Positions 1-64,000 of a stretch of 64,000 nt of DNA are shown one piece after another. A program made the position numbers and the translations under genes. The stretch is from assembly GCA_905178155.1 (NCBI GenBank), contig CAJINV010000002.1, positions 12,533,621 through 12,597,620 on the forward strand, read 5' to 3'. The notes beneath the pieces are model-generated. The model did no database searches, was not told where the DNA came from, and saw only the letters and a list, made by a program, of their open reading frames with translations. Each line of letters opens with the position of its first letter. Position 1 is the first letter of the stretch. Origin of the DNA: Amoebophrya sp. A120 (lineage: Eukaryota; Protista; Dinoflagellata).

Positions 1-1265
1 CTGGTCGCACTTGATCACCACGCGGTTTCGCATGTGCGTGAGTTGATCGGCTAGGGGCTGCACGCTGCGGTCCCAGGTGGCCGAGAAGAAGCAGGATTGA
101 AATTTTTCCGGAAAAGAATACATGATCACCGCCAAGTCCTCTTCAAAAGAGCTTTCTTCCAACATCCGGTCTGCCTCGTCGAGAACAAAAAAAGTGACGT
201 TATGGCAACCTAACTGTCCGTTTTCCACGAAATCCCGCATGCGTCCCGGCGTTCCAACCCACAGGTTCGCATACACCATTGACCTAGATGAACGCAACAA
301 AACGATTCACGTTCAGCGAAATACGTTCGTCTTCCTGTTCCTGCTCATGTACTTATTTACATAAAAGTTGTCTTCTTCTTCGATGAATCAATGCTTGTAC
401 GTCTTGTTGCTTTTCGCTGAATTAGGTACGGCGGAAAGAAAAATCCTATATAGGTAACGAATACGAAAGCTGCTTCTCTTTTTTCTCGCCGCCGTAGCAC
501 ATCCCCGTGGTCACCGGGAAATTACACCTGTCCGAAAGCGCCGGCGGGACGATTTTCTGGGCCTCGCTGTGGATCTGGATGACGAGCTCTCGTGTCGGGC
601 CCATGATGAGCGCCCGGGAATGCGGGTTAGCAGTCAAATGGATGATTGCGGGGACGAGAAAGGCAAGCGTTTTGCCGGAACCGGTTTTTGCCACACCAAC
701 GACGTCGAACCCCTGGATCACGAAGGGAATGGTGAATTTTTGCACCTTATACGGATGGCCCAGTCCGATTTGCTTGAGTTTTGCCCCCAGTGTAGACATC
801 TGGTCTCGCAAATACCTGAAAAGCATTAGCAGTATTATAAAGCGCAAGGTCATGCTGAATCCATGATTACGAAGTATTTGCTTCCCATAGTACCTTGGGC
901 ATGTCGCGACCTCCTACTACAGCTTTGATGCAAGAGGCATAGCATTAGTCTATTTACTTACTTTTTTCCGTTTTGGCGCACTTTCTCCTCCGGCGGCAGC
1001 GGAAGGAAGAGCGATCGGTAAGACCGGAACGTGATGAGCTTCGTGCAGTCCGGATCACTTTCTCGTGGATACTTGTACTCGTAAGTAATGTTTTCCTCGG
1101 ATCTTTGCGCGTCGGGGCATTCATAGAACACCTCCTTGAAGAGACTGGACTTCTGTCCGAATATGTTGAATCGCACCGAATCCAGTTTAAATGCTGGAGG
1201 TCGCATGCTTGGCGGGTGACTCGCGTACAACTCAACCTCATCGTACCCGTGGTCCGAGCATCCTT
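1..1265 (-). CDS. DEAD-box RNA helicase (DDX5/DBP2-like), core exons; 3' part continues beyond the left edge. Exons about 962-1265, 465-815 and <1-283
   Basis: Q motif and motif I (PYKVQ...GFDVVGVAKTGSGKTLAF) and motif Ia PTREL are in 465-815. GTPGR, VLDEADRML and FFSATW are read manually in 1-283. GT-AG introns at 816-961 and 284-464 join these in frame. Confidence 0.92.
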
Positions 1266-3169
1266 CTAGCAAAGCTTGGGCGCCGTTCGGTCCTTGCAGA
1301 CTGTGTGATGAATGATGATGTGGATTGGTGATCTGGACATGTAGTTCATGTGAATACAGAGACTGTGACTGGCAGACAAGCTGATTTTCATGTCATGTTT
1401 TTGTCTTCGCGGCGAAATAAACAACAAGAATAAAAGCAGTGAGTTGTACAGAGCGTGCGATTGTGGTGCGACGCTGGTGCTGGGCCGCCTATTTTCCATT
1501 TTCTTCGTGTCACGCCCGGTTACTCCCAGCAGTCCCTGTGGCGTCCCTGTACTCTTCGGCGGCATCGACGACTCAAGATTGCGCGCCCGGTTTGCAGACG
1601 GCTGTGATGTGCCTGCTCCGCAACGGCTGTTACCGGTCACAACAGAAGAGCTGCGCGCTCTTCCTTCGTTCTGGCGAGGGTATTTCTGCCCCGCCGTACT
1701 GCGGTTTGTTCCGAAACTGCCGCACACCTCCGAGCCGCCGTCCTGCTGCTGACCGCTTGCCCGACCGCTCTCAGCGAATTGATGGTCACGACCTGACAAT
1801 TTCTGAGTTTGAGCATGCAAAATCTGCTGCTGCTCGGTGTCGTCGGGGTTATAGTTGCTTACGCTTTTTTGTTCTCCAGGCGGAGACCAACCACGCATGT
1901 CCGTGCTACAGTTCCAAGATTGAAATTCCTGACGTGTTGCTGTGTCCTGTTGTTCGCCATGTACTCTCTCTGCCACTTCTTTTTTTGTTTGCTGAGCATT
2001 ATCCTCGTCATTTGCTTCCCACCATGGCCTTGAGCTGCTGCTTTGCGTTTGCCACCAGATTGCATCTGCGTCAGCAGCTTCATATTGATCATCAGACCAC
2101 TTACCCTCCTGCTCCTTTTCCGGTGCCCACTTGGCGTAGTGTCCCCACGAAGAATCATCTTCTTGCTGCTCCACCGTAGCACGGCCGTAATTCCAATCTT
2201 TGTAGTTCATGGTCTGGAGGCACTCGCTTTGTACTTGCGAACGAGCGGCCTCCAGGACGCCTCCTGTGCCCGCACCGCCAGTTCCGGCGTCGAAAGCATC
2301 GCAATCTCTTCCACCTACTCCGGCATGGGACGCTTCCCGATCTTCATCATCAGACGACGCTGACACGTCTGGCACCTCGGAAGACTCCTGGGCTTCCTCG
2401 TTATCCGAACAAGAAGCGTCATATTGTACACGCTCCTTCTCAAAATTCAGCTCATTTCCTTCTCCAAGTATATCGGAATGTGCCGCAGCGGCAACATCCG
2501 CGCCCTGCTGCGCGAAATTGTAGATCTCCACCGTCGCCTCAGGGTCTTGGTCTTGCCAAAAGCTTTTCATGCCAGGCGTTCCCACAACGTTTGAAATGCC
2601 TAGCCAGGCTTGACACGTTACGCGAGGGTCAGCCGGTGGAGGAAGATCGAGATAGTCCGCAGCGTCGTAGACACGACGAGGGTCCGTGCCACGCAAATCC
2701 TCGCCGCCCTCATCTCGGAGGGTCGTTCCAGCAGCGGTACTTCGATTCGGTTCCGTTGCTTCCGCCTTGTAGTGCTGCTGTACGGCCGCGACTTGTGGTG
2801 TGGCGGCTTCTCTTACGCCTGTGACACCCGACGTGCCAGGAGTTCGGTGCAATAGGCCTGATATGCTTTGACTTCGATTTGATGTTTGTCGCTCGCCATT
2901 CGGTAAAGCCAAGTTTTGCGGCCCCTGCAGGTGTCCACGCTGCTGACAGACTAACTGGTCAGCCTCATAGACCTCGACCCGAAACTTGCGCGGAAAGGCT
3001 GTGCCTCCCCGTACCTTCAAGCGTACTGTTACGGGAACCTTCGGTCCATGCTGATTCACAAGAAACGTCTTCTCCAATAGCTCGTCTTCCTCCAGCACGG
3101 CTTGTCCTGTGCCAGTGCGATAGCCGAGATTGTCAACCATGTTCGTCGGATCTCCGCTCTTGTCTTTAT
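1266..3169 (-). CDS. Long low-complexity (Q/S/G/W-rich) coding exon, probably the N-terminal extension of the helicase gene; 3' splice donor not resolved
   Basis: Part of the 740-aa ORF 1266..3488, protein-like from KDKSGDPTNMVDNLGYRTG onward. The ORF segment above 3169 merely reads into an insertion. Confidence 0.6.
3121..3169. repeat. Direct repeat R, copy 1 (49 bp)
   Basis: tagccgagattgtcaaccatgttcgtcggatctccgctcttgtctttat, identical to copies at 5851 and 7021. Confidence 0.98.
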
Positions 3170-4623
3170 TAGGGGTTGAAAGAATTAAGTTTTTGGTCAA
3201 GGTTTTGATTTGCGATTTTTCATTTTTTTTCTCCTCGCTCTGAATGGAAAAGGAAAGCGCAGACCATCCAGCCGAAAAAGCTCGCTGCGCCGATATCAAC
3301 ATCTCGGCCGGTATCCAGACCAGCAGAAGCCGGGCAAAATGGAAGCCGCGCGCTTGCTGCTTCCAACCTCCCCCCCGGGTGAATACGATGAAGCCGCGGC
3401 GGCATTTTTCTCGGCTTCTGCTGACCCGGACTGCTGGCCAAGATATTAGCCTCGGCACCTCCCCAGAAGAACCCCAGACGCATGCCATCCGCCGCGAGGT
3501 ATTTGGGGCGCCGGGCTGCTGGCCCGGCTTCTCCGCCCCCAGATCTCATCCTGCGGTGGCGCGTATCGGGGTCCGGGGGAAGAGGCTGAGCAGCTGCGGG
3601 CTTGCCCGGCTGGAGGTTTGGCCGGGTCCCGGTTGCCGCCAAGGCGGCAAGTTCTCGGCTAGGCCTTTTCATGACAAAAGCGCACCAAAATGGAAGCAGG
3701 TTCTGATTTTTTCCGGGAGCTTTCCCCGGACTAACGCTTACGCCTTTGCCCCTGCCCTGGCCCCCCCCTTTCGGCCGAACTTGGTGGCCTAAAGTGGGCC
3801 GACGCGGGCGCCCATATCTTGGCCTGGCGGCCTGCCTTTTCCTGCGAGTTCCCTGGAGCAAATGGCAGGGCGCCCGGCTTCTCTGGCCCCGCATCCCGTT
3901 CCGCAATCTTGCGGGACGCCGTCCGGAGGCAAAGGTAGAGCACCTTCATCCTGGCCAACCACAGGGATGCTTGTCCCTGTAGTGGCTGCCGCCAAAGCGG
4001 CAAGAGGTTGGCCAGGGTTTTGCTCAGAAGAGGCTCACGGACATGGACGCAAAGACTTACTTTTCCCGGAAGCTTCCCCCGACCTGGAAAAATACGCTTT
4101 TGCTTTCGCTTTGTGCTTCATCTTGTGGCCGAAAGTGCGGAGCCGAGCTGCGCCGATATGCTCGCCCATATCGTGTCGAGGCGGCCTGCTTCGTCGTGCA
4201 AGCCACCTGGAGCAACTGGCAGGGCGCCCGGCTTCTCTGCCCCCGGATCTCGTTCCACAATCTTGCGGGACAACGGGAGGAGGCAGAGGCAGAGCACCTT
4301 AACGGCCAACGACGGATATGCCTGTCCCTGTGATGGCTGCCGCCAAAGCGGCAGGGTTTTGGTCAGGGTTTTGCTCCGAAAAGGCTCACCGCAATCGAAG
4401 CAAAAACTTATTTTTTTCGGGAGCTTCCCCCGAGCTAATAAAATAAGTTTTTGCTTTCGCTTTGCTCTCCTTTTTGTCGCCGAAAGTGTGGAGTTGTTCT
4501 GGGCGGGTTTGTTCGCCCATATCGTGCCCAGGCAACCTGCCTGGCCTTGCAAGTTACTTGGGGCGAGTGACAGAGCGCCCGGCTGCTCTGCCTCCGGATC
4601 TCGTTCCGCAATCTTGCGGGAGA
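3170..4623. mobile_element. Inserted cassette 1 (1454 bp), non-coding, GC-rich, with ~350-bp internal tandem repeats
   Basis: Bounded by R copies 1 and 2; no recognisable protein; internal repeat is cut off at the R junction. Confidence 0.6.
3630..4621. repeat. ~350-bp degenerate tandem repeat, about 2.8 copies
   Basis: gccgccaa(a/g)gcggca recurs near 3635, 3988 and 4338; cc(g/a)caatcttgcggga recurs near 3901, 4255 and 4606. Confidence 0.9.
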
Positions 4624-4663
4624 GTCAACCATGTTCGTCGGATCTCCGCTCTTGTCTTTATGT
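4624..4663. repeat. Direct repeat R, copy 2 (40 bp, left-truncated)
   Basis: gtcaaccatgttcgtcggatctccgctcttgtctttatgt, which is R positions 12-51. Confidence 0.97.
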
Positions 4664-5850
4664 TACTCCGAAAGCATGGGTCTAGATGTATGGGGTGCCG
4701 AACTTGCCCAGAACTTGCGCAGAACTTGTCGGACCGGTTTCCGGTTGGGGCAATACAAGAGGGCGCCGGGGTTCCAGGCAACGAGGGCCCAACCTTCCGC
4801 CGGTCTATACTGCTCAAGTGGATGCCGGCTGCACGTTGGTGCGAGACAGCAGCCCACCAAGATGAACCACCTAAACGACGGCCAAACGCTACGGCAACAC
4901 GCTTGCACATCAACCGAAGATGAGCACGATGCAGCATACTTCCCCCACAGCCGAGCCCCCGTCCGTGCTCGCGGCTGTGGGCACGACAAGAAGGGAGGCC
5001 TTTCTTTGAGGTGTTGCACCGGAGGGGGGGCGCGAGAGCGAGTGTCGCCCTGTGGCGAGACAGCGCGTCTACGGCCGGGAGCATGCCACACCAGCGCAGC
5101 AGGAGACAGGATGAAGGGAGAGCGCCATCGTGTAACGCGCGTTACACGATGGCATGCGGCTTCGTTTGCTGGAATGCGATAAAACAAAGCGTTTCGGGAG
5201 CGCGCGCGATGACAACAAGATAATCCTCGGCGGGCCCGCCCGACGACTGGGGCCGGCCCATCCACGCCGGGCGCCGAGAGGGGGGCAGGCTTGGCAGGCT
5301 GCGCCGAGCCAACACCCAGGCGGCCTCCGATGCCGTGACACCTCGCAGCCTGCCCTCCTTCAGAAACCCAAAAACCCCCGGGGTGGCCCTCTGGCCGCTT
5401 TAGGGTTGCGAGGCCCCCGAACCGGATCAAACCACAGCGGCGCTCCCATCAAAGAGCACGTCGGCGGCTGGCGGTGCCGAAGGCCGGCACTTCGGTTCGA
5501 CGATGCGAAACACTCTCGCCGACAAAGACAAGGCCCGGACCACCCTCGTGGCCCAAACTACAAGAAAAAGAAGTCCTCTCCGTGGGGGGCGTCAACATGA
5601 CAGACAAAACAGAAGCTGCTTGAAGCAAGGGCAGGCAGAGTGGCGCGCCTCCTCTATTAATAGGGCACGAAGGCGAGGAGGGGCGCTGCTCGCTAACCAA
5701 GAAAGTAGCCGCAGCCTGGCAGGCGAGCCAGCGGCGCCTTGCCCCTCTCACTCGGGTCTAGCTGGCGGGCGTCTCACCTTGAGGAAAGATCGAGTTGCGT
5801 CCTCGATCTTTCCGAGACAAGTTCTGGGCCAAGTTCTGGAACAAGTTCTG
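4664..5850. mobile_element. Inserted cassette 2 (1187 bp), MITE-like, with subterminal inverted triple CAGAACTTG motifs
   Basis: Left 4698-4733 ccgaacttgcccagaacttgcgcagaacttgtcgga is an imperfect inverted repeat of right 5811-5850 tccgagacaagttctgggccaagttctggaacaagttctg. Perfect 30-bp palindrome at 5124-5153; 12-bp-stem hairpin at 5783-5813. Confidence 0.7.
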
Positions 5851-5909
5851 TAGCCGAGATTGTCAACCATGTTCGTCGGATCTCCGCTCTTGTCTTTATG
5901 TATCATTGC
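5851..5909. repeat. Direct repeat R, copy 3 (59 bp)
   Basis: Identical over 59 bp to 7021-7079. Confidence 0.98.
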
Positions 5910-7020
5910 ATGACTCGCAAAAGCCCCCCCCTTTTCGCCGGAAAACTTCTCCCAACGCCCTCGGGGGACGCAATTCATGCCAAGTCGATCGGTTTGGCGC
6001 GCTGGTGTAGTTCTTTTGAAGCTTAGCAAACATCTGCAGCAGCACGAAGATCGGCGGCACAAAACAAATCTCCCTAGGCGGGCGATCAAAACCGGCTGAC
6101 TTTGCGCGCTGTCAACAAAAGCGAAAACGCGTTGACTTTGCACTTCGGGCTCGCCTAAAGAACCCCTCAGGAAGGAAATAAAAAGCCCGCGCTTTTTCGC
6201 TCCGTTTTACGAATAGGCTGGAAAAGTGGGAGAGTGAAACTCCACCAACTTTTCGCACGCAGCGAGCTTTCAGTCTGCCTCCAGAAGACACTCAAAAAAC
6301 CAAGTGAAAGCTCAGCGGTGTTTTCACTCGGAGTGACAAGTCACTACACATTCCGAAAGGCTTAGGGAAAAGAAGTGAGAAATCAGTGATTTCTCACTCT
6401 CGCGAAATCCTGACGGCTGGAGACCTTTTCTGGAGTCCGACTCCAGAGTGAGAATTTTTCAAAAGTGAGAAATCAGTGACTTCTCACTACTTTTCTCGAA
6501 GGTACTTCGGGGCTCGAAGGTCTTCGGGGCTCGAAGTACCTTCGAGAAAAGTAGTGAGAAATCACTGATTTCTCACTTTTGAAAAATTCTCACTCTGGAA
6601 AGAGTGAACGCGACTCCGACTCCGGAGTGAGAATTTTTCACAAGTGAGAAATCACTGATTTCTCACTCCGTTTCTCGAAGGTGTTCGAGAAACAGAGTGA
6701 GAAATCAGTGATTTCTCACTTTTCCCAAATGAAAATTTTTCAGAAGTGAGAAGTCAGTGACTTCGCACTTTTTTCAAAATGGAAACTTTTCAGAAGTGAG
6801 AAATCAGTGATTTCTCACTTTTCTGATTTCTCACTTTTCCAGAATGAAAATGCTTCAGAAGCGGGAGGTCGCTGACCTCTCACTCCGCTGTTCGAAGCCC
6901 TGCGGGAAACGGACCGGAGTGAGAAGTCTTCCAAAATGAAAACTCTTCCGAAGTCAGAAAGCGCGTTCTTCTCGTCCCGTTTCTGGACGGAATGTAGGCC
7001 CCTTGTTTCTCAAAAAGAAA
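5910..7020. mobile_element. Inserted cassette 3 (1111 bp), non-coding, palindrome-rich, A-rich right end (ctcaaaaagaaa)
   Basis: Bounded by R copies 3 and 4; contains an array of 25-bp palindromes. Confidence 0.65.
6300..6930. repeat. Array of 25-bp palindromes AGTGAGAAATCA(G/C)TGATTTCTCACT nested in larger hairpins
   Basis: Copies start at 6374, 6464, 6553, 6643, 6696, 6745 and 6795, plus degenerate ones. Arms 6442-6509 and 6532-6599 form a 68-bp inverted repeat with one mismatch; a second hairpin spans about 6642-6721. Confidence 0.95.
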
Positions 7021-7079
7021 TAGCCGAGATTGTCAACCATGTTCGTCGGATCTCCGCTCTTGTCTTTATGTATCATTGC
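7021..7079. repeat. Direct repeat R, copy 4 (59 bp)
   Basis: Identical to copy 3; on the minus strand encodes AMIHKDKSGDPTNMVDNLG. Confidence 0.98.
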
Positions 7080-7330: not shown

Positions 7331-7908
7331 TATCAACCAAGCGACGACTAGGAGCGTTGATCCGTAGTTTTACCAACAGATATTCTTTTTTTTCCACAAC
7401 CATACATGCTAAAAAAAAACGAACCACACACAAGAAGTGATCCATTCAATCTTTGAGAATGAACAGAAAATGATCGTCTGCAACATCTTGACCTTGTGCC
7501 ACTGAGGCTACTTTCCTTTGGGTTAAAACGAAAGAGCGCTGGTCACACCCAGGAAGCGAGAACTGTATCCTAAGGAAAGTACAAAAATAAGTCCAGCTTC
7601 GCTGTCGCACGAAGATCATCTTTTGTAAGTATCTGATCGACGCGGATTTCTTTCGTAGTGTCACACCAACAGTCAAGAGAACAACTTTGCCGTGAAAAGT
7701 GGCTTCGGTAATTTGAGTCGAACACGCACCGACAGTATCTCTTCACTGTGCTTTATTGCTTCGCAATTAGGATGCAAAAATGCAGCACTGGCTCCGTATT
7801 TCACTGCTCAATTGTCAAAAAATCTCGAACTCGTAATTCTGCGCGTATCATAACATCGGGCCAAAAACGGAACGAATGGTTTTTTCATTTCACCTTATGG
7901 ATACAACC

Positions 7909-10900
7909 TTACGTAAAAACGATTTCCGTAACGCGTTTCTCAGTGTCAGCTCCAGCTGCTTTGACCAGCTGCGAAAAGTTGCTTGTCTCGTCGCGAAGCA
8001 GATCCTTCGGTGCCCCGAATTCGGCCTTGGAGCCGCGGTCCAGAAAAAGCACCTTCTCGTAGTCCGCAATCGTTTCCAAACGGTGTGCAATGGTCAGCAC
8101 GCAGCAATCTTTCTGCTTCTTCAGCCAAGTCCGTATCGCGCGCTGCACCAGTGCGTCGGTCTCCAGGTCGCAGCTCGCCGTTGCCTCGTCACAGACTAAA
8201 AGCTCTGGCTTCCGCAGCATCACGCGCGCCAAGCAAACCTGCAGAGATAATAAAAGTTACGTCAGCGGACCGTTTTTTCCCCTGAAATCTGAATCAAGAA
8301 AGAAAAAGACGCAAGAAAACATTCAACCACAAGCAGTAAGATTTGTAGAAAAATGTTGTTACCAGCTGCCGCTCGCCCAGACTAAGGTTTTTCCCCGATT
8401 CTTCAAGATTGGTCACCAAATCGTAGTGTTTCAGAACCTCCTGCTGCTCCTTTTCCCGTTCGTCACCACCGTCTGATCTAGAACGTTGGAACAAGCAAGC
8501 CGAGGCCAGCGCATCCTCGCACTCCTGATCGCTGTATTCACCGAAAGGATCCAAATTTGCCCGGACCGTGCCGCTGAACAATACTGGATCTTGAGTGATG
8601 ATCCCCAGGCGCTTTCGGCTTTCGTTGACCGGCACGACCACGCCCCGGGTCGGGTCCGAGAGCAAGCTCTTCCCGTTCAGAAAAATGCGCCCGTGAATCT
8701 CCTCAGCGAGGTTGAAGATCGCGACGGCGATGGAGCTCTTGCCCGCGCCCGTCCGCCCGACCACCGCGCAGCGCTCGCCCGGCGCGATGGTCACCCAAAG
8801 TTTGGTCAACACGTAGTTTGGCAGATCCTTGCGGTATTTAAGGTAGAGGTCCTCTATTACCAAACCAGGCTGCGGTTTGTCAAGTCGATCTGGAAGTAGA
8901 GCATCCTTCGCTGCAGTTGTTGCATCTTCCAGTTGTTCTGCGGACCGCTGTACTAAAAGCGGCTGTTGACAACTGTCGTCGCCCCCATCTTCGTTGCTCA
9001 CAGCTGCTTCTTCGAGTGAAGTCTGTGACAACCGAGCGCGCTTCCCGAGGTACACTTGCTGGCTGGTCGGAGGCGCGCCGCTCTTCTGGCCTTTGAAGCC
9101 GCGCTCCTCGTGAATCTCTAGCTTCGTCGTTTCCCCGGGCAAGGCCCTGTGGTCGCCCTCCACGTCGCGACTGTTTGCGTTGTCCAGATCGCTGTGCACG
9201 CCGTCTTTGGGCACGAAGTGCGGGCCCAACTTCCGCAGATTTTCCACCGACGCAACGCTCGCGTCCGCCTGTACGTAGTACAGGTAGCAGTACAAACACG
9301 CCTCCGAGAAGTTCATGCACCACCCGAGCAGCACCCCGGCGATCCCGGCGTCGAGGCGGGAGGAGAACACCAGCACCAAGCACCAGTACAGCAACCCTAG
9401 CACTTCGATCCGCACCCCGAGCCAGCGGAGAGCCAAATTCTGCGCGTACGTCACGCGGGATTGCTTGTTCAGCAACAACCGGCAGAGCTGACTGTAGACC
9501 TGCTGCCGCTGGAAAACCCGGATCACCGTGACCCCTTGGCACGTTTCGGAGAAGAGCGACAAGAGCGCCGGCAGATTCTCCAACTGTTTCAGTTCCGTCA
9601 GGCGACGCCGGGCGGTGGAGAGCAGGATGCACAGCGGGAGGAGAAACGCCGGCAACACGAGCACCAGGTACCACGGCCACAAGAGCCAGGAGGAAAACAC
9701 CACCGCCGTGATGTTCCAGCTGAAGAACAAGAAAAAGGGAAACAAGGCAACCGGGAGACTGGCGTCGACCTGCTCCACGTCGAAGGAGAAGCGGGTTAGC
9801 AAAGCGCCGACGCTCATCGTGTCAAACCAGTGGATTGGGGCGCGGAGCACCGAACGCAACATGTCGTCGAACAGTTTCTCCGAGGCCATGCGGGCGAGCC
9901 GCGGGAAGGTTCCGCGGAGCGCAATCTGCAGCGCTTTGTTCAGTCCCATGAACACCCCAAAGAAGATCAGGTACCTCTTCCGATGCAGCAACCGCGTCAC
10001 GTCGTCGTCCTCCGGGTGAAGCACGTCGGTCTGGCTCCACCAGGACATGCTGAGATCGCTGAACACCGCCAGAATCCGCTCGCCAGTCATCAGGATGCCC
10101 CAACCGATCAGGGGCACGAAAAGCCGCAGCGGATACACCGTCGCGGCGGACACCGGGTGCAGCTTCGTCGCGGCGAATTTCGCCTGCCGGCTCATGGCCG
10201 CCAGGTAGGTCGCGTACATGGAGAGTTTTCCTGGCACGAGATCTTTCAATTTCGCCAAAACCGCCGCGTCGGGCTCGTCGTGATCGTCGCTCTTTCCGTC
10301 TACAACAGAAGTGCTACAGCTGCCTTTCTTTCGCTTTAATGTCGCTGTTCCGCCTTCGACGTCAAACGGCTTGTTGGGGTCCTCTGGGTCTGGGTCGGGG
10401 AGCTCGGATATTGGTAGTCGTGCTGGTGAGTCTTGCGGCTGCCGCTTGATCGCAGCGGGCGTCGTGCACATTCCATTGTCGTCTTGGTTATCAAGTGCAA
10501 AAATGTCTGGGTCTGAATGAATGAATGAGTGACGCCCCCTGACGCACCTCGTCGATCCGATCGCTTCACTAGTTCTTCTTCTTTCCTGGACTGCCACGAA
10601 TGCAAAACGCAGCCAGCTTGTCGCGCATACATGTTAACCAGCAAGCGATTTCCCGGTCCGACGGCCCCTCTTACTCCGGTTTTCGACGACACACGCTGTG
10701 TCGCCTGTGGGTGAACCAGTACGCCATGCGTACATGGACGAAACCCTGATTGGCCGTTGAGCCACCCCCGCGGCACCTACCGACTCTCCCCGAGCCGGTA
10801 CACGTGATCAACAAACACCACTAGTGCCTACTGCTCCGTGGGTCTGGAAAAGTGTAAACTTGTCATGCAGATTTTCCATGACCCATAAGGTCTGGAATGC

Positions 10901-13900
10901 GGGACTTAGCATGACAGACTCTGCGAGGTCTCTCCCATGCCTATCCTGCATGAGAAACTCCCTTCCAACTTGGTCAAAAGTGGACAGCTTTTGGCACTCA
11001 TGCAACACAGATTGTTGCGTGCTTCAGATGTACCATGACAAGTTGGCACCTTCCAGACCCAGACATTTTTGCACTTCATATTGGTCCGGCGAGTGCAATA
11101 CACAGGCCTCCAGCTGTCGCATGCTTTTCACCGGGGAAGCGTTCCGCGAGGTCGCTCTGCTCACGGAGGCAGCTACTGCTGGCTCGTCCCGCAGCGCGCC
11201 GACGGACGACTTCAAGTTGCGCGTGTACGTGTCGTGCTGATTTTCGATCGTGTTCATGGACGTGCTGGTACCCAGCGGATGGGACTCGGGATCGCGAAGT
11301 TGCAGCTGCCGCGTCGCGGGCGGGGTTAAGGAGGCGCCGGAAGTTGTATAGCCCGGACTTTGGTCGTAGTCGCCATACGCGCGTAGCTGCAACTGGTGCT
11401 GCAGCTCCTGAATGTTCGCGGCATCCGTGCTGGGCTCCTGCGCGGCGTGGATCAGCAGCGAGCATTCAGAAACCGCGTTCCCGATCGGATGGATCACGCC
11501 GCCAACCAGACCCCCCGCAGCCCACATCAGCCCGTCGGTGGCTGGGGCGGTGCGGAGTTCGTAATTGTCGGCGACCTGCTGGTCGATCACCTGGTGCGGT
11601 TGCTGTGTGGGTGTGTTCATGTCGGTCCGTGCGTTACTACTCTCAAACGCGTGCTGCTGGTTCTCGTCGTCCACGTACTGGCCCGCGGTAGCGGATCCCT
11701 CCACGAGAGCGACGTTCTGTGCCAGTGTATCGCGGAGCAGACAGGCAGTTTCGAGGCGATCCGAGATCAAACACTCGACATCAGCTTCATTTGCAGAAGT
11801 ATTCGGCACTTGTTGATCTGGAGGCAGCTGACCGAAGCTAAGCGCCGGATCCATCGGTTTAACGATCGGGCTTCCCCGGGGGCCTATCACGACTTCGGGC
11901 GATAATACTCGTGGTGAACGTGAGGGTGACCACCCATGACTTGGTTGTCCATCGGTTGTCCGTGTGCGCACAAGTGGCAAGCTCATTTCCGTATCTTCCT
12001 CCTCCTCATCCCCCTCAGGAATGGGCGGCGGGTAATTGTGGTGAGGCTCCTGCTCGTTGTTGAGATTGGTATTGTCGTCCAGGTTTGCTCGTAAGTCCGT
12101 GCCGAATAGACTATCCAAAGTCTGGGGCAAACCTTGGCGCGGTCGAACCTGTGCCTGGCGGCCAAAGAGAACCGCAGCCAGGGAATGGCTGTTTTCCTCC
12201 AAGCGACTCGGAATACCGTCCTGCAACGCGGCTTCTCCGTCCCCCAAAGGACCTCCACCGCACCAGTTATTCTGCGAGCTGGTGCTGCTGACTGTTCTCG
12301 CCAATCCGGTGGCGGATGCGGACGCACACGGGACGAGGTGCAGGTCCCGCTTTTGCTCGTCACTTCTGGCAGTGGGCGATTCGAGATGAACTGCGCCCGT
12401 TGTCGACGACGTTGCGCTGTGTGTGAAATACGCCGACCCGACTGAAGTTGTCGACATTGTTGGCGCTAGCGCTGTTCGACTCTGCTCCACCTCGGAGAGG
12501 ACGTCTTCGATTAGACGTGGCGCCGTTTCCTCCCGCGGAACTGCGTGCGGCGAGGAAAAAAAAGCCGACATACTTGCAAGCGAATTGCCCGCTGGCACGA
12601 GCTCGAACTGCGGATAGCTGGAGGTTGCGACCAGTTGCTCCTCCGAGTCCAGCGGCGCGCCGCCAACTGTCGTATTCAGTGGGCGCAGGAAAACACCAGG
12701 AGTGGAGGACAGGACCGGAATGGAGGCTGCTGCATCTGCCGGCGAATTGTTCAACCCTGTTGCGTTCGCGGAAGACAGCACACCCACGGCCTTGCTCCCT
12801 GCAACCGCACTGGAGAAAGTCCGCGTCAGCATCAAATCGTCGGGTACCGCAGTAGTCCCCGCGATCTCGGTGGCAATCGCACCAGCGGGAGGGGAACACA
12901 GACAGAGCTCGTCAGCCGCGGCCTGCCAGGTCACCGACCGACTGATGGGGTCGATCGCAGACTCCTCCTCCATCTCCTTCTCCAGCTGCGCGTAGTCTGC
13001 ATCCTCGACTATTGGAAACAACTGCTTAACGGCAGTATCGACCCGAAACTTCCGCACGCGTGCCCGCACTGGCCGGTCTACGAAGTCCGGAGGGGGATAG
13101 CAGGAGGCAGCTGCGGGTGCATGTGCACCCGCCCCGCCGACAGTCGCGGTCCAATAGTCCTTGTTCGCTGTGAAGAGAAACCCTTGCCAGGGCTTCTGGT
13201 TGAAGGTCAGCTTGTCGCAAATCTGCACCGCGGTGCGGTTGTCGAGCGCAGCAAAGATGTCGTCGAACAGGAAGAGGTCTGTCTGGTCAAAATCGTACAG
13301 AGCCCGTGCGAGCGCCAAGCGCATGCGCTGCCCGCCGCTCAGGTTGCCGCCGCGTTCCCCCACGATGGTCTGGTCGCCGTAGGAAAACTGAAACTGAATG
13401 TCAGAATCGAGATGCGACATCTGGATGCACTGCTGATATTTCCCTGCATCAAAATCGCGGTAGAACAGAATGTTTTCCCGAACCGTGCCCGCAAAGATGA
13501 ACGGTGACTGAGAGACGTAGCTTACCTTTAAGATCTTCTTGGCTGCCGAAGTTCCTGGGGCTGCGGTCGCGTCTAGATCTACAGCACTGGATTCTAGCAA
13601 AGACGAAGCCGCTGCCGGTGGCCCAAATCGCATCTCTCCATCGCAGATCCTCGCTTCCCCGAGAATGCTTTTCAGTAAAGTGGACTTCCCACTGCCGACC
13701 CGACCCATCAGGACGATTGTGTCACCCTGGCAGAGTTGCAGATTCACCTTCTCGAGCACGGTAGCGGCGTCAGGAGCAGATTCGTGTCCTGCTCCTGGTG
13801 GGTTTGCAGGCGAGGGAGCTGCCGTCCCATTACTGTCCCAGCCGACTGACAGGTCTTTCAGATCCAGCAGAACGTCTTCCTGACGTCTACTACTTTTTCG

Positions 13901-40300: not shown

Positions 40301-43300
40301 AGAGATCGCCGCAGCTCGTCACTACCCGTCGCCGTACGGTAGTCGCCGATTTTGAAGTAGACGCCCGCTTTGACCTCGAGAAATTCGGTCTGAAACTTCT
40401 TCAAGTCTTCGCTTTGCAGAGTGGCGCAAAATTCCGCGATTGACCCCACGAATGGCGCAAAAACCTCGCTCCAATCCGGATTCGCAGCGGCCACATCCAT
40501 CATGAGAGGAGTGTTCCAGAGCCGGGTAAGGGCGTCGGTCCTCATTTTTTTCAGTGCTGTCGCGTCTTGCTTCTCCGAGGTTTGGCTGTCAGAATTTCGT
40601 CCCGTAAGCATCATGGCTAGCCGTGGAACCGCGTCGGTCGATGCAGCAAACCGCGCTTCTTCCAGCCTAGCAACGTCGACTGCACGCCCCGAGAGATCCG
40701 GCATGCACTTCTTCAGCAGCAAATCTAGTCCATTACTCGAGGTTGAACTCGCATTTGAAGTTCCAGAGCCCCCAAAGTAGTGCCGCTGCATCGCAGCCCG
40801 AAGCCGGCCCTCCACTCTTTCCTTCGACGGTTCCGGCATTTTTTCTTCCTGCGCGGCGAGCAAGAGACCGATGTTCTTCCACCACTTCAGGTCGTTATTG
40901 GAAAAGTTATTTTCCGCAGTCTTTGCGGCTTTTCCTGCACCGCCCTCTTTGCTCTTCCCATTTGTGATACCTCGGACGTCGCAGAGCTGATTCGGGCCAG
41001 CAATGAGGCAATTTTTCTCCACGAGCAAATCCGCAAGTTTGTAGCCGTACTGCTCTGCCAGCAGAGCCACGACGGAATGCGCCTTCACGGCCTCGTGGCC
41101 GTACTGATCTTGCAGCAGCGACTCGCAGTCAGAGACCCACTCCAGGAATTCTGAAAGCCCGAACGTCGACTCGGTTGCTGCACCGTGTAGTTCCAATTCT
41201 TCGCCTATTGCCGCATTAACACCGGACTCCACTTTCGCTTTCGCGACTGCCACGACGCAGCTATCCACGCGCTCCGTGAGCAGCTGTATCAAGTGGTCCG
41301 CGAAGGCCGTTTCGGATACGGCGGTCACGCCCTTCGCACCAGGCGGTCCAGTTTTGCTCTGGCTGGAAGTAGATGTAACTCCTGCGTTGAGGCCAGAAGA
41401 AGAAGATTTTACGAGCAGTCCGGACGCTTTTGACGTTGCGGTCGGGACGCTTTTCCTCTGCTCTTGCTTCGTAGCAAGTACTGCATTCGAACCACTCCCG
41501 CCGATCGCAAGCATAGTACCAGCGCTGCCATTGACTCCACCAGTGCTTTGTTGCTCCAGCAATTTCTCACTCAAGATCTCCCGCAACGTTTTCGCCTCGT
41601 GTTGCTCCCCAGCAACGTCGCCACTGTGATCGGAAAGCACGATAACCGGCCCCGCGTGGACCAGGTACTCCAGTACAGAAACCGGCGCTTCGGAGTTCGC
41701 GGAACAACGAAGGAATTCCAGATACGCTTGCTCCGCCTCCGCCAGAATTTCGAGCAAGTCCGCATTTTGCTTCGGGAATTTGTCCAACGAGGCCAAAACT
41801 CGGCGCTTCAGCTCGTTGTTCAGGTACAGCTTCCGCAGGTTGTCCGCTTTCTGCACCGAGCTCTTGTTCCACACCTCGCTACTTTGTTTCTTCATCTTCG
41901 CCGCCGCCTTTGTCAGAGGAATGATGTTCGCCAAGGTCATGAACAACAGCGGAGACACCGAGTGCTTCACGAACCGGTCGACCAAAGTGTCCAGGTCCTG
42001 CTCCTTTTGCGCCAACACGATTTGCACCTTGTTCACGAGCTCCGCTACTTGGTCGGTTCCGGCTTTCGCCGACTTCTCGAAGTTTGCCAACACACTGTGC
42101 ATGGACTTGAACGAGCGGCGAAAATCCAAACCCAGGTCCCGGGCGCAGAGCGCCTCGCAGAACTCCAAACGCAGTCCGTAGGTCTGGCACTTCTCGAACG
42201 CGCGGAACACGTGCTCCCACCGCATCACGTGGGACACGTGCACCTGCTCCTCCTTCACGCGGTCGTGCAACTGCTTCACGTTCGTGCTCAGCATCAACTG
42301 GTTCTCCTTCCCGGCGTGGTTGAAGTTCGACCGCTGCAGTTTCGCCAGCTTCCACGGCCGCGTGTTGATGGCTTCTATGACCTGCTCAAACGTTACAATC
42401 TCAAACGTTACAATAGAATCTGAGATTTGTCTTGCATGATCAACATGACAGACTCGGACAGCGTTCCACTTTTTGCAATGCAAATTTCGCCAGATTGTAG
42501 TGCGGATTGGAACTCCAGAACTTGTCATGCGCAATCCTGTGGGAGTAGGGTAGATCATGTTCATGCACTTCTTGCAACACAAATTCCAGATTCTATTGTA
42601 ACGCTTGAGATTGTAACACCTGAGCGGGTTATAGCTTCCTCCAACACTTTCTGTTCGCGGTCGAACTTCTTCTTCATCTTCCGCATGATAGTCCGCACCA
42701 GCCCCTGGCGCTGCACGAAGACGCCCAGGTCCAAGTAGTTCGCCTTTTTGTAGATCTGCGCCACCTTCTTCAGCCCCGTCTCGATGGTCCAGTCGGTGTC
42801 CCCCTGGTGCTCGTCCCAGTTCTCCGCCGGGATCGTGGCGATCAGGTACCCCATCAGCCGCTCGGTGGAGAGTTCCGGGAACTTCACCACGGGCTGCAGG
42901 GACGCGTCGGTCTCCTTTTTGATTTTCGACGCAGAGCTGTTGTTGATCGTCGGGAGGAGATTCAGTTGGAAGTTCCGCCGCACCAACGGGTGGTATTCAA
43001 GTCGACCCAGGGCGTTCAGCGACTCCTGCGACTTGATCACGGGGTTGCGTTCAATCATGATCCGCAAGTCGTGCAGCGTCATCAACGCCATGCAGGAAAA
43101 CGCCACTTGGCAGGTCGTGTCCACGACGAAGGAGACCTGGATCAGTCCCTTGAGCAGCGCGCCCACCTGGGGCAGGTTCAAAATCTGCGAGGGGTGCATC
43201 TGCTGCGCCCAGGCCAGGTTGTCCAGCTGTCCCTGGATGTGCGCGATGGTGAGGAACCCGTGGGTCTTGATGAACCGCTCGAAAACGGAGGTCACCGTTT

Positions 43301-63914: not shown

Positions 63915-64000
63915 TGTAAAAATGTCTGGGTCTGGAAACTTGTGATGCTGGGTGGCGTCTCATGATGAGGCTACAAATGCTGGCTCAGCATGACAAGTTT
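63915..64000. mobile_element. Second copy (one end) of introner family A, in the TLDc gene
   Basis: tgtaaaaatgtctgggtctggaa matches the ABCC-intron terminal repeat. Internal motifs aaacttgtgatgc and gcatgacaagttt match aaacttgtcatgc near 10856. Confidence 0.8.

Follow-up and report, generated by a model that had tools for sequence, protein, structure and literature searches.

The first codons of a DEAD-box RNA helicase gene in Amoebophrya sp. A120 are interrupted by a stack of three unrelated, non-coding repeats, which are separated from one another by copies of the same short stretch of host coding sequence. The array lies within 64,000 nucleotides of contig CAJINV010000002.1 (the window; coordinates count from its first letter) and has the order R-S1-R-S2-R-S3-R, where R is the invaded host sequence and the cassettes S1, S2 and S3 are 1454, 1187 and 1111 bp long (Table 1). 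Here, we present evidence that this array is real and conclude that it is a variation on known target-duplicating insertion. The reading that fits best, held with moderate confidence, is that the cassettes were inserted by target-primed reverse transcription in trans by a non-LTR-type (non-long-terminal-repeat) reverse transcriptase/endonuclease encoded elsewhere, with reuse of the duplicated site.

Exact-repeat analysis returned the same boundaries of R and the same cassette lengths as a preliminary description of this DNA. All R copies are identical, with no mismatch among the exact maximal repeats, and an A at both 3120 and 7020 lengthens one pair of copies by 1 base. With R numbered from 1 to 59, the target duplications are 38 bp for S1 (R12-49), 51 bp for S2 (R1-51) and 56-60 bp for S3; the last had been put at R1-59, and is given here as a range because the TGC at 5907-5909 is common to other S3 copies. 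The three cassettes lie in the same orientation; blastn detected no match among them or between them and other parts of the window. When the 64 kb were scanned, with mismatches tolerated, for direct repeats of at least 24 nt spaced 300-8000 bp apart, the six pairs of R copies were the only ones apart from internal repeats of S1 and S3, which were filtered out. The geometry forces the insertion of S2 to have preceded that of S1, and S3 would be the earliest if growth always took place at the gene-proximal copy of R. Because all R copies are identical, the loads appear to be of similar young age.

The stacked arrangement is confirmed by the depth of a run of short-read contigs (X1), possibly built from the source reads of the assembly itself, in which word depth is independent of scaffolding. 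The contig covering R1-59 has a depth of 133.6 and the contigs of the two flanks have depths of 41.3 and 43.6, a ratio of 3.06-3.23. Counting of 31-mers predicts a mean of 3.0 copies over R1-59 for a stack, versus 1.28, 1.72 or 2.0 for alleles bearing single inserts. In addition, among the 8 of 26 pieces listed, two junction contigs stand at full flank depth (S2/R, 44; R/S3, 41.9). The roughly threefold depth of R and these two junctions therefore identify a stack rather than alleles joined in series, a possibility raised when the array was first described. The depth of R is fully explained by its four local copies, so that there are no further exact copies elsewhere and R is neither a dispersed repeat nor the end of an element. 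R is thus a single locus, as had been expected.

All three cassettes are multicopy, since X1 contigs consisting of a single cassette have depths of 93-281. In agreement with the earlier view that they are dissimilar, non-coding and non-autonomous, 0 of 14 cassette open reading frames (ORFs) matched Pfam at E<=1, ARAGORN found 0 tRNA genes, and no Rfam family was matched at gathering score; the S3 matches were sub-threshold miRNA hairpins arising from its palindromes. A hammerhead core pattern matched the cassettes on neither strand. A coding origin of S2 was considered, as all three insertion/deletion differences between S2 and a relative described below are multiples of three, but it was rejected when comparison of the two in six frames gave no codon-position bias.

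The verifiable termini of these families are at the left junctions. In four further contigs of X1, other flanks are joined to S3 at 5907 or 5909, and the left end of S2 is shared with its relative and with a contig that joins at 4665 with a different flank; the latter belongs to run X3, which consists of contigs of another study than X1 and whose RNA status is guessed, not on record. Multicopy S1 contigs in X1 begin near 3168, as judged from the distance-to-end column. The right ends of S1, S2 and the S2 relative are ragged, and other copies of S1 and S2 carry their arrays on past 4621 and 5850. A contig of depth 130 shares the right end of S3 and terminates at 7020, which may therefore be a true element end. 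These observations place the conserved termini on the side earlier taken as the variable second cut, and do not bear out the proposal that the right junction marks the first nick and carries 3' tails. The short tandem tail described for S2 is indeed present at its right end (5817-5850), but it is not unique to it: the motif occurs inverted near the left end (4700-4728) and is longer in other copies. None of the three cassettes, nor the insert of the S2 relative, has terminal inverted or direct repeats (best inverted match 8-10/20, compared with 19/20 for a control introner in the window). S1 and S2 start with TA. The left junctions follow AT or GT, and the target ends in T in three of four insertions, or in all four if TGC is counted as part of S3. 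The T-run at the conserved end of S2 is 1-2 nt here and 3 nt in the relative. Short hairpins occur at the right ends 4623, 5850 and 7020 (stems of 6, 4 and 5 bp) and a stem of only 3 bp at that of the relative (4961); stems of at least 4 bp in three of four cases, with a background of 13-27% per position, are a weak and post hoc observation.

A scan of metagenome contigs with the left end of S2 gave 1 match, at a locus designated L001. Over their first 516 bp the L001 insert and S2 share 83% identity, and beyond that the two diverge at a palindrome; the insert is 964 bp long and lies between 46-bp direct repeats that agree at 43 of 46 positions, in keeping with the prediction that duplications of 30-60 bp would be found elsewhere. 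Its target has nothing in common with R beyond a 10/11-nt motif (p 0.020 from shuffling and 0.027 against 46-mers of the window), which is degraded in the second copy of the L001 duplication, is out of register with either boundary and is drawn from two targets. This motif, TTCGTCGG(A/G)TC at L001 3952-4000 and R22-32, could be a loose targeting motif. A homolog search with an L001 ORF gave no match. Since a member of the S2 family has made a 46-bp duplication at an unrelated target, targeting specific to R is unsupported; as judged from this one locus, the long duplication follows the cargo family or the mobilising process and R is not required for it.

Several further features of these families were noted. 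The 30-bp palindrome at which S2 and the L001 insert diverge is at 5124-5153 in S2 and at 4484-4513 and 4644-4677 in L001, contigs of X1 and of an estuary metagenome (X8) also switch sequence at 5119-5121, and the palindrome may be a module joint among related repeats. In contigs of X1 and X3 the 12-bp array at 5817-5850 is joined to different internal sequence, and one X1 contig skips 4971-5467; the S2 family thus includes internal-deletion or chimeric members. X8 contains short variant pieces of all three families in 7 contigs at depth 2-5, none of which extends across a target. Among viral contigs there were 0 matches to the S3 palindrome and 0 to the S1 unit, and 2 matches to a 17-nt S2 pattern, in phage capsid-like genes, were dropped as chance. 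A scan of prokaryote genomes with the S3 palindrome gave 0 matches.

In all four insertions, the three described here and that in L001, the duplications vary within a narrow, long range (38, 51, 56-60 and 46 bp). Variable long duplications, together with one conserved and one ragged end, are the reason that target-primed reverse transcription fits best. In this process a loosely specified site would be nicked on both strands, 40-60 bp apart; a repeat RNA would then be copied, with the conserved end of the family joined at the left junction and the other end left ragged; fill-in of the overhangs would duplicate the site; and the duplicate would serve as a fresh target into which the next cargo inserts. 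The pairing of a conserved and a ragged end would resemble that of 5'-truncated retro-copies, and the varying T-run of S2 would fit a short A tail or untemplated addition. The left junctions preceded by T and the S2 T-run fit either strand as the RNA, and polarity is not fixed by them. The trans-acting part of the integration system first proposed is retained in this reading, and its site specificity for R is not.

Individual features of this process have published precedents. R9 makes a 126-bp target duplication (PMC6895275), duplications of Dualen exceed 50 bp with a median of 900 (bioRxiv 2022.05.23.493040), and these long duplications, like those here, are ascribed to widely spaced nicks. 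Both elements are autonomous and R9 has a fixed, multicopy RNA-gene target, whereas we found no ORF, no fixed target and no end common to the cargos. A precedent for stacking is given by the R1 arrays of Drosophila, in which insertion into an earlier 14-bp duplication produces a series of elements at one site, with a copy of the duplicated target between each and the next (PMC2718515). What is repeated there is a single autonomous element, at a fixed site in 28S rDNA; in Amoebophrya, three unrelated non-coding sequences have entered single-copy coding DNA, with variable duplications of 38-60 bp. Non-LTR elements have been reported in A120 (PMC7789003; PMC12130899). Within some terminal-inverted-repeat (TIR) introner copies of A120 family fam9, OTU (PF02338) and reverse transcriptase (PF00078) domains are annotated (PMC12130899, Dataset S2), which may point to a non-LTR element lodged inside introners.

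Membership of a familiar class of retroelement is less easily assigned. The cassettes share the variable duplication length of non-LTR retro-insertions in general. CRE/SLACS elements make long target duplications at fixed multicopy RNA genes. Site-specific non-LTR elements (CRE/SLACS, R1, R2, R9) require a conserved multicopy target, to which the family returns; R is the single-locus start of a helicase gene, and with two targets in hand the S2 family is found at unrelated ones. SINEs and retrozymes possess a tRNA or small-RNA head or a hammerhead, none of which was found in S1-S3.

A number of observations weigh against target-primed reverse transcription. No reverse transcriptase was found or linked to the cargos: among 28 long ORFs of the window there were 0 matches to reverse transcriptase, transposase, recombinase or Cas families, as anticipated by the preliminary statement that the window encodes no enzyme for integration. 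The three cargos have no recognisable end sequence in common, none has a true poly(A) tail, the only candidate being the T-run of 1-3 nt at the conserved end of S2, and none has a tRNA head, an Rfam family at gathering score or a hammerhead-like motif. S2 has one short repeat inverted at both ends, an arrangement typical of DNA transposons. All four cargos are 0.96-1.45 kb long, and truncated retro-copies usually spread more widely in size. Three insertions within 60 bp require a targeting signal, for which the sole candidate motif is weak and out of register. Finally, Replitron-1 produces a fixed left end, a fuzzy right end and a variable duplication without an RNA step (PMC10288648).

The strongest competitor is one-ended DNA transposition completed by host repair, which we consider rather unlikely. 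An HUH/rolling-circle or DDE transposase would join one true end to the target, and repair would copy about 1-1.5 kb of donor and rejoin the target a few tens of bases further back, so that the far end is ragged and the duplication long. In Replitron-1 and Replitron-N1 of Chlamydomonas, as in the cassettes, the left end is fixed, the right end fuzzy and the duplication variable, and the non-autonomous partner, at about 0.9 kb, is comparable in size to the cargos here (PMC10288648; bioRxiv 2022.12.15.520654). The TA at the start of S1 and S2, as in the TAT...ATA elements of this genome, the inverted subterminal repeats of S2, the richness of the cargos in palindromes and the hairpins at three of four right ends point in the same direction. 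On the other side, Replitron-1's left end lies downstream of RG and the element has a short terminal direct repeat, both of which are absent here, and no Rep gene was found. No right TIR or strand-changing joint appeared among the X1 contigs, and the model requires that three unrelated families failed alike at a single site and with one orientation. The duplications made by ordinary TIR elements in the window are of 5 bp, and for each of the 57 A120 families covered, out of 58, duplications of 2-11 bp or none are recorded (Gozashti et al., PMC12130899, Dataset S2).

A variant of the reverse-transcription reading, distinctly unlikely in our estimate, would build the array in one event. A reverse transcriptase at a single staggered lesion would alternate between the target overhang and a new, unrelated repeat RNA, thereby writing a repeat-spacer-repeat array at any site. 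This would account for the reuse of R1, which would be a physical nick, and for the boundary series 59/56-51-49, the identity of all copies of R, the one polarity shared by the cassettes and the lack of relation between R and the L001 target. Because a single lesion with serial jumps is involved, no targeting signal is required; sequential reuse of a duplicated site has precedent, yet needs such a signal. Homology-free, end-to-end template jumping is described for LINE (long interspersed nuclear element) reverse transcriptases (PMC6895275), and in the literature searched we found no account of a reverse transcriptase that returns repeatedly to its target between cargos.

Host repair alone, in which a break with a long 3' overhang is healed by a polymerase that switches between the overhang and stray repeat DNA, without any element enzyme, is improbable. 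It requires no site-specific target and agrees with the similar young age of the loads suggested by the identical R copies, and microhomology is present at two junctions (GAGA, equal to R6-9, and TGC, equal to R57-59). Against this, insertions that are independent of one another start at an identical base of the element, for S2 in this array and in L001 and for S3 in five contexts, as would not be expected of random capture.

Still less probable is a site-specific system dedicated to R, into which it would load cargo in the manner of a CRISPR array. Three loads within 60 bp, the use of R1 twice again and a nested geometry that fits growth from one end are what such a system would produce, and the CRISPR-like character first ascribed to the array holds for its layout alone. 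A CRISPR array, however, has a constant repeat, short uniform spacers and Cas1-Cas2, whereas the repeats here are varying sub-intervals of a host exon, different in length at every load, the spacers are 1.1-1.5 kb long and no Cas family was matched by the 28 long ORFs of the window. R is single-locus coding DNA, and the presence of the S2 family at the unrelated L001 target largely refutes the proposal for S2. Although none of the contigs listed spans the array and the evidence comes from short-read contigs whose reads may be those of the assembly, an artefact in which alternative single-insert alleles were joined serially is extremely improbable in view of the depth of R, the two different full-depth junction contigs and a junction of R with S1 that is crossed by a contig of X3, a run from another study.

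The consequences of the insertions for the helicase gene can be followed in some detail. When the empty site is read on the minus strand, an in-frame stop precedes the ATG in R by 16 codons and the reading frame then runs on as MIHKDKSGDPTNMVDNLGY to join the helicase ORF; the closest foreign homolog of the downstream DEAD domain is a protein of Amoebophrya sp. A25 (56% identity). R has no Rfam match and folds no better than its shuffled versions (z 0.32), and neither do the element ends (10 sequences in all, R included). A 3712-nt contig of X3 covers 2400-3262 with 0 mismatches, crosses the R/S1 junction and stops 93 nt inside S1; the modelled coding length counted from there is 3467 nt, which with a trailer agrees with the length of the contig. 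Because this contig spans the junction and the unique intergenic bins at 7468-7800 have no cover in X3, the data suggest that the gene now takes its 5' leader from S1. No joint that removes any of the cassettes occurs among the X3 contigs, in which those 93 nt of S1 are retained. At 3240-3262 on the minus strand, 71 nt upstream of R copy 1, the end of S1 has a pyrimidine tract terminating in CAG that resembles an acceptor for splicing or trans-splicing; the X3 contig extends 22 nt beyond this CAG, unspliced, and a short out-of-frame ATG follows it at about 3223.

Table 1. Features of the array, the helicase gene and the introner-like elements of the window
Feature	Coordinates	Strand	Remarks
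R copy 1 (R1-49)	3121..3169		Gene-proximal; on the minus strand the first ATG is gone and an in-frame second ATG is kept (MVDNLGY)
S1	3170..4623		Left end unique over about 330 bp, followed by about three 351-bp tandem units that diverge; right end truncated within a unit; multicopy
R copy 2 (R12-51)	4624..4663		Preceding four bases GAGA equal R6-9
S2	4664..5850		11-bp repeats 4700-4728; 30-bp palindrome 5124-5153; inverted 12-bp repeats 5817-5850, cut short; multicopy
R copy 3 (R1-59)	5851..5909		Last three bases possibly those of S3
S3	5910..7020		25-bp palindromes arrayed in the centre in units of about 50 bp; right end A-rich with 5-bp hairpin; multicopy
R copy 4 (R1-59)	7021..7079		Inferred original start codon ATG 7075-7073, minus strand; in-frame stop 16 codons upstream
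DEAD-box RNA helicase gene	1..3169	-	Runs past the window start; modelled as P0001, 1168 aa, with modelled start 3302 within S1
S1 end kept in the X3 contig (RNA status guessed)	3170..3262	-	Likely present 5' leader; 0 mismatches
TAT...ATA element (typical introner, control)	10489-11080		592 bp; TIR 19/20; 5-bp duplication TTGGT; interrupts an ABC-transporter gene
Second TAT...ATA element	42376-42633		258 bp; 5-bp duplication GCTTC; short subterminal repeats; in a long ORF region

Two other insertions in the window are of a kind already known from this genome. TAT...ATA ends and direct repeats of 3-5 nt are the published signature of A120 introners (Farhat et al., PMC7789003), and both elements listed in Table 1 have such ends. 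A 17-20-nt match to the TIR of the first lies at 63918, and the second is within a 3871-aa ORF region with Sacsin and NOV_C domains. Like the cassettes, introners are non-autonomous repeats inserted in genes of the same host; they are bounded by TAT...ATA inverted ends and short direct repeats and are spliced out (PMC7789003; PMC12130899). S1-S3, by comparison, have no TIR, their duplications are about ten times longer, and the end of S1 is kept in the X3 contig. Five element motifs were absent from 12 of the 14 supplement files of PMC12130899. We found no published account of such inserts in Amoebophrya, the results on target duplication in Amoebophrya or dinoflagellates being introner papers and reviews, and, as judged from listings, no work that describes unrelated cargos stacked together in a protist, in a survey that did not extend to Repbase or to the majority of subscription papers.

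If target-primed reverse transcription in trans is the correct reading, the retro-integration machinery of Amoebophrya accepts non-coding cargos of about 1-1.5 kb that are unrelated to one another, does not depend on a fixed target and makes duplications of 40-60 bp, and this unusual scar would be a lead to a promiscuous enzyme that writes RNA into DNA. If instead the array was written in one event, it would represent a way of building repeat-spacer arrays unlike both CRISPR and the R1 arrays. The long duplication lets inserts accumulate at the start of a gene with its reading frame intact. The end of an insert has apparently turned into a 5' leader, and in the compact genome of a parasite this would be one way for gene starts to be rewired.

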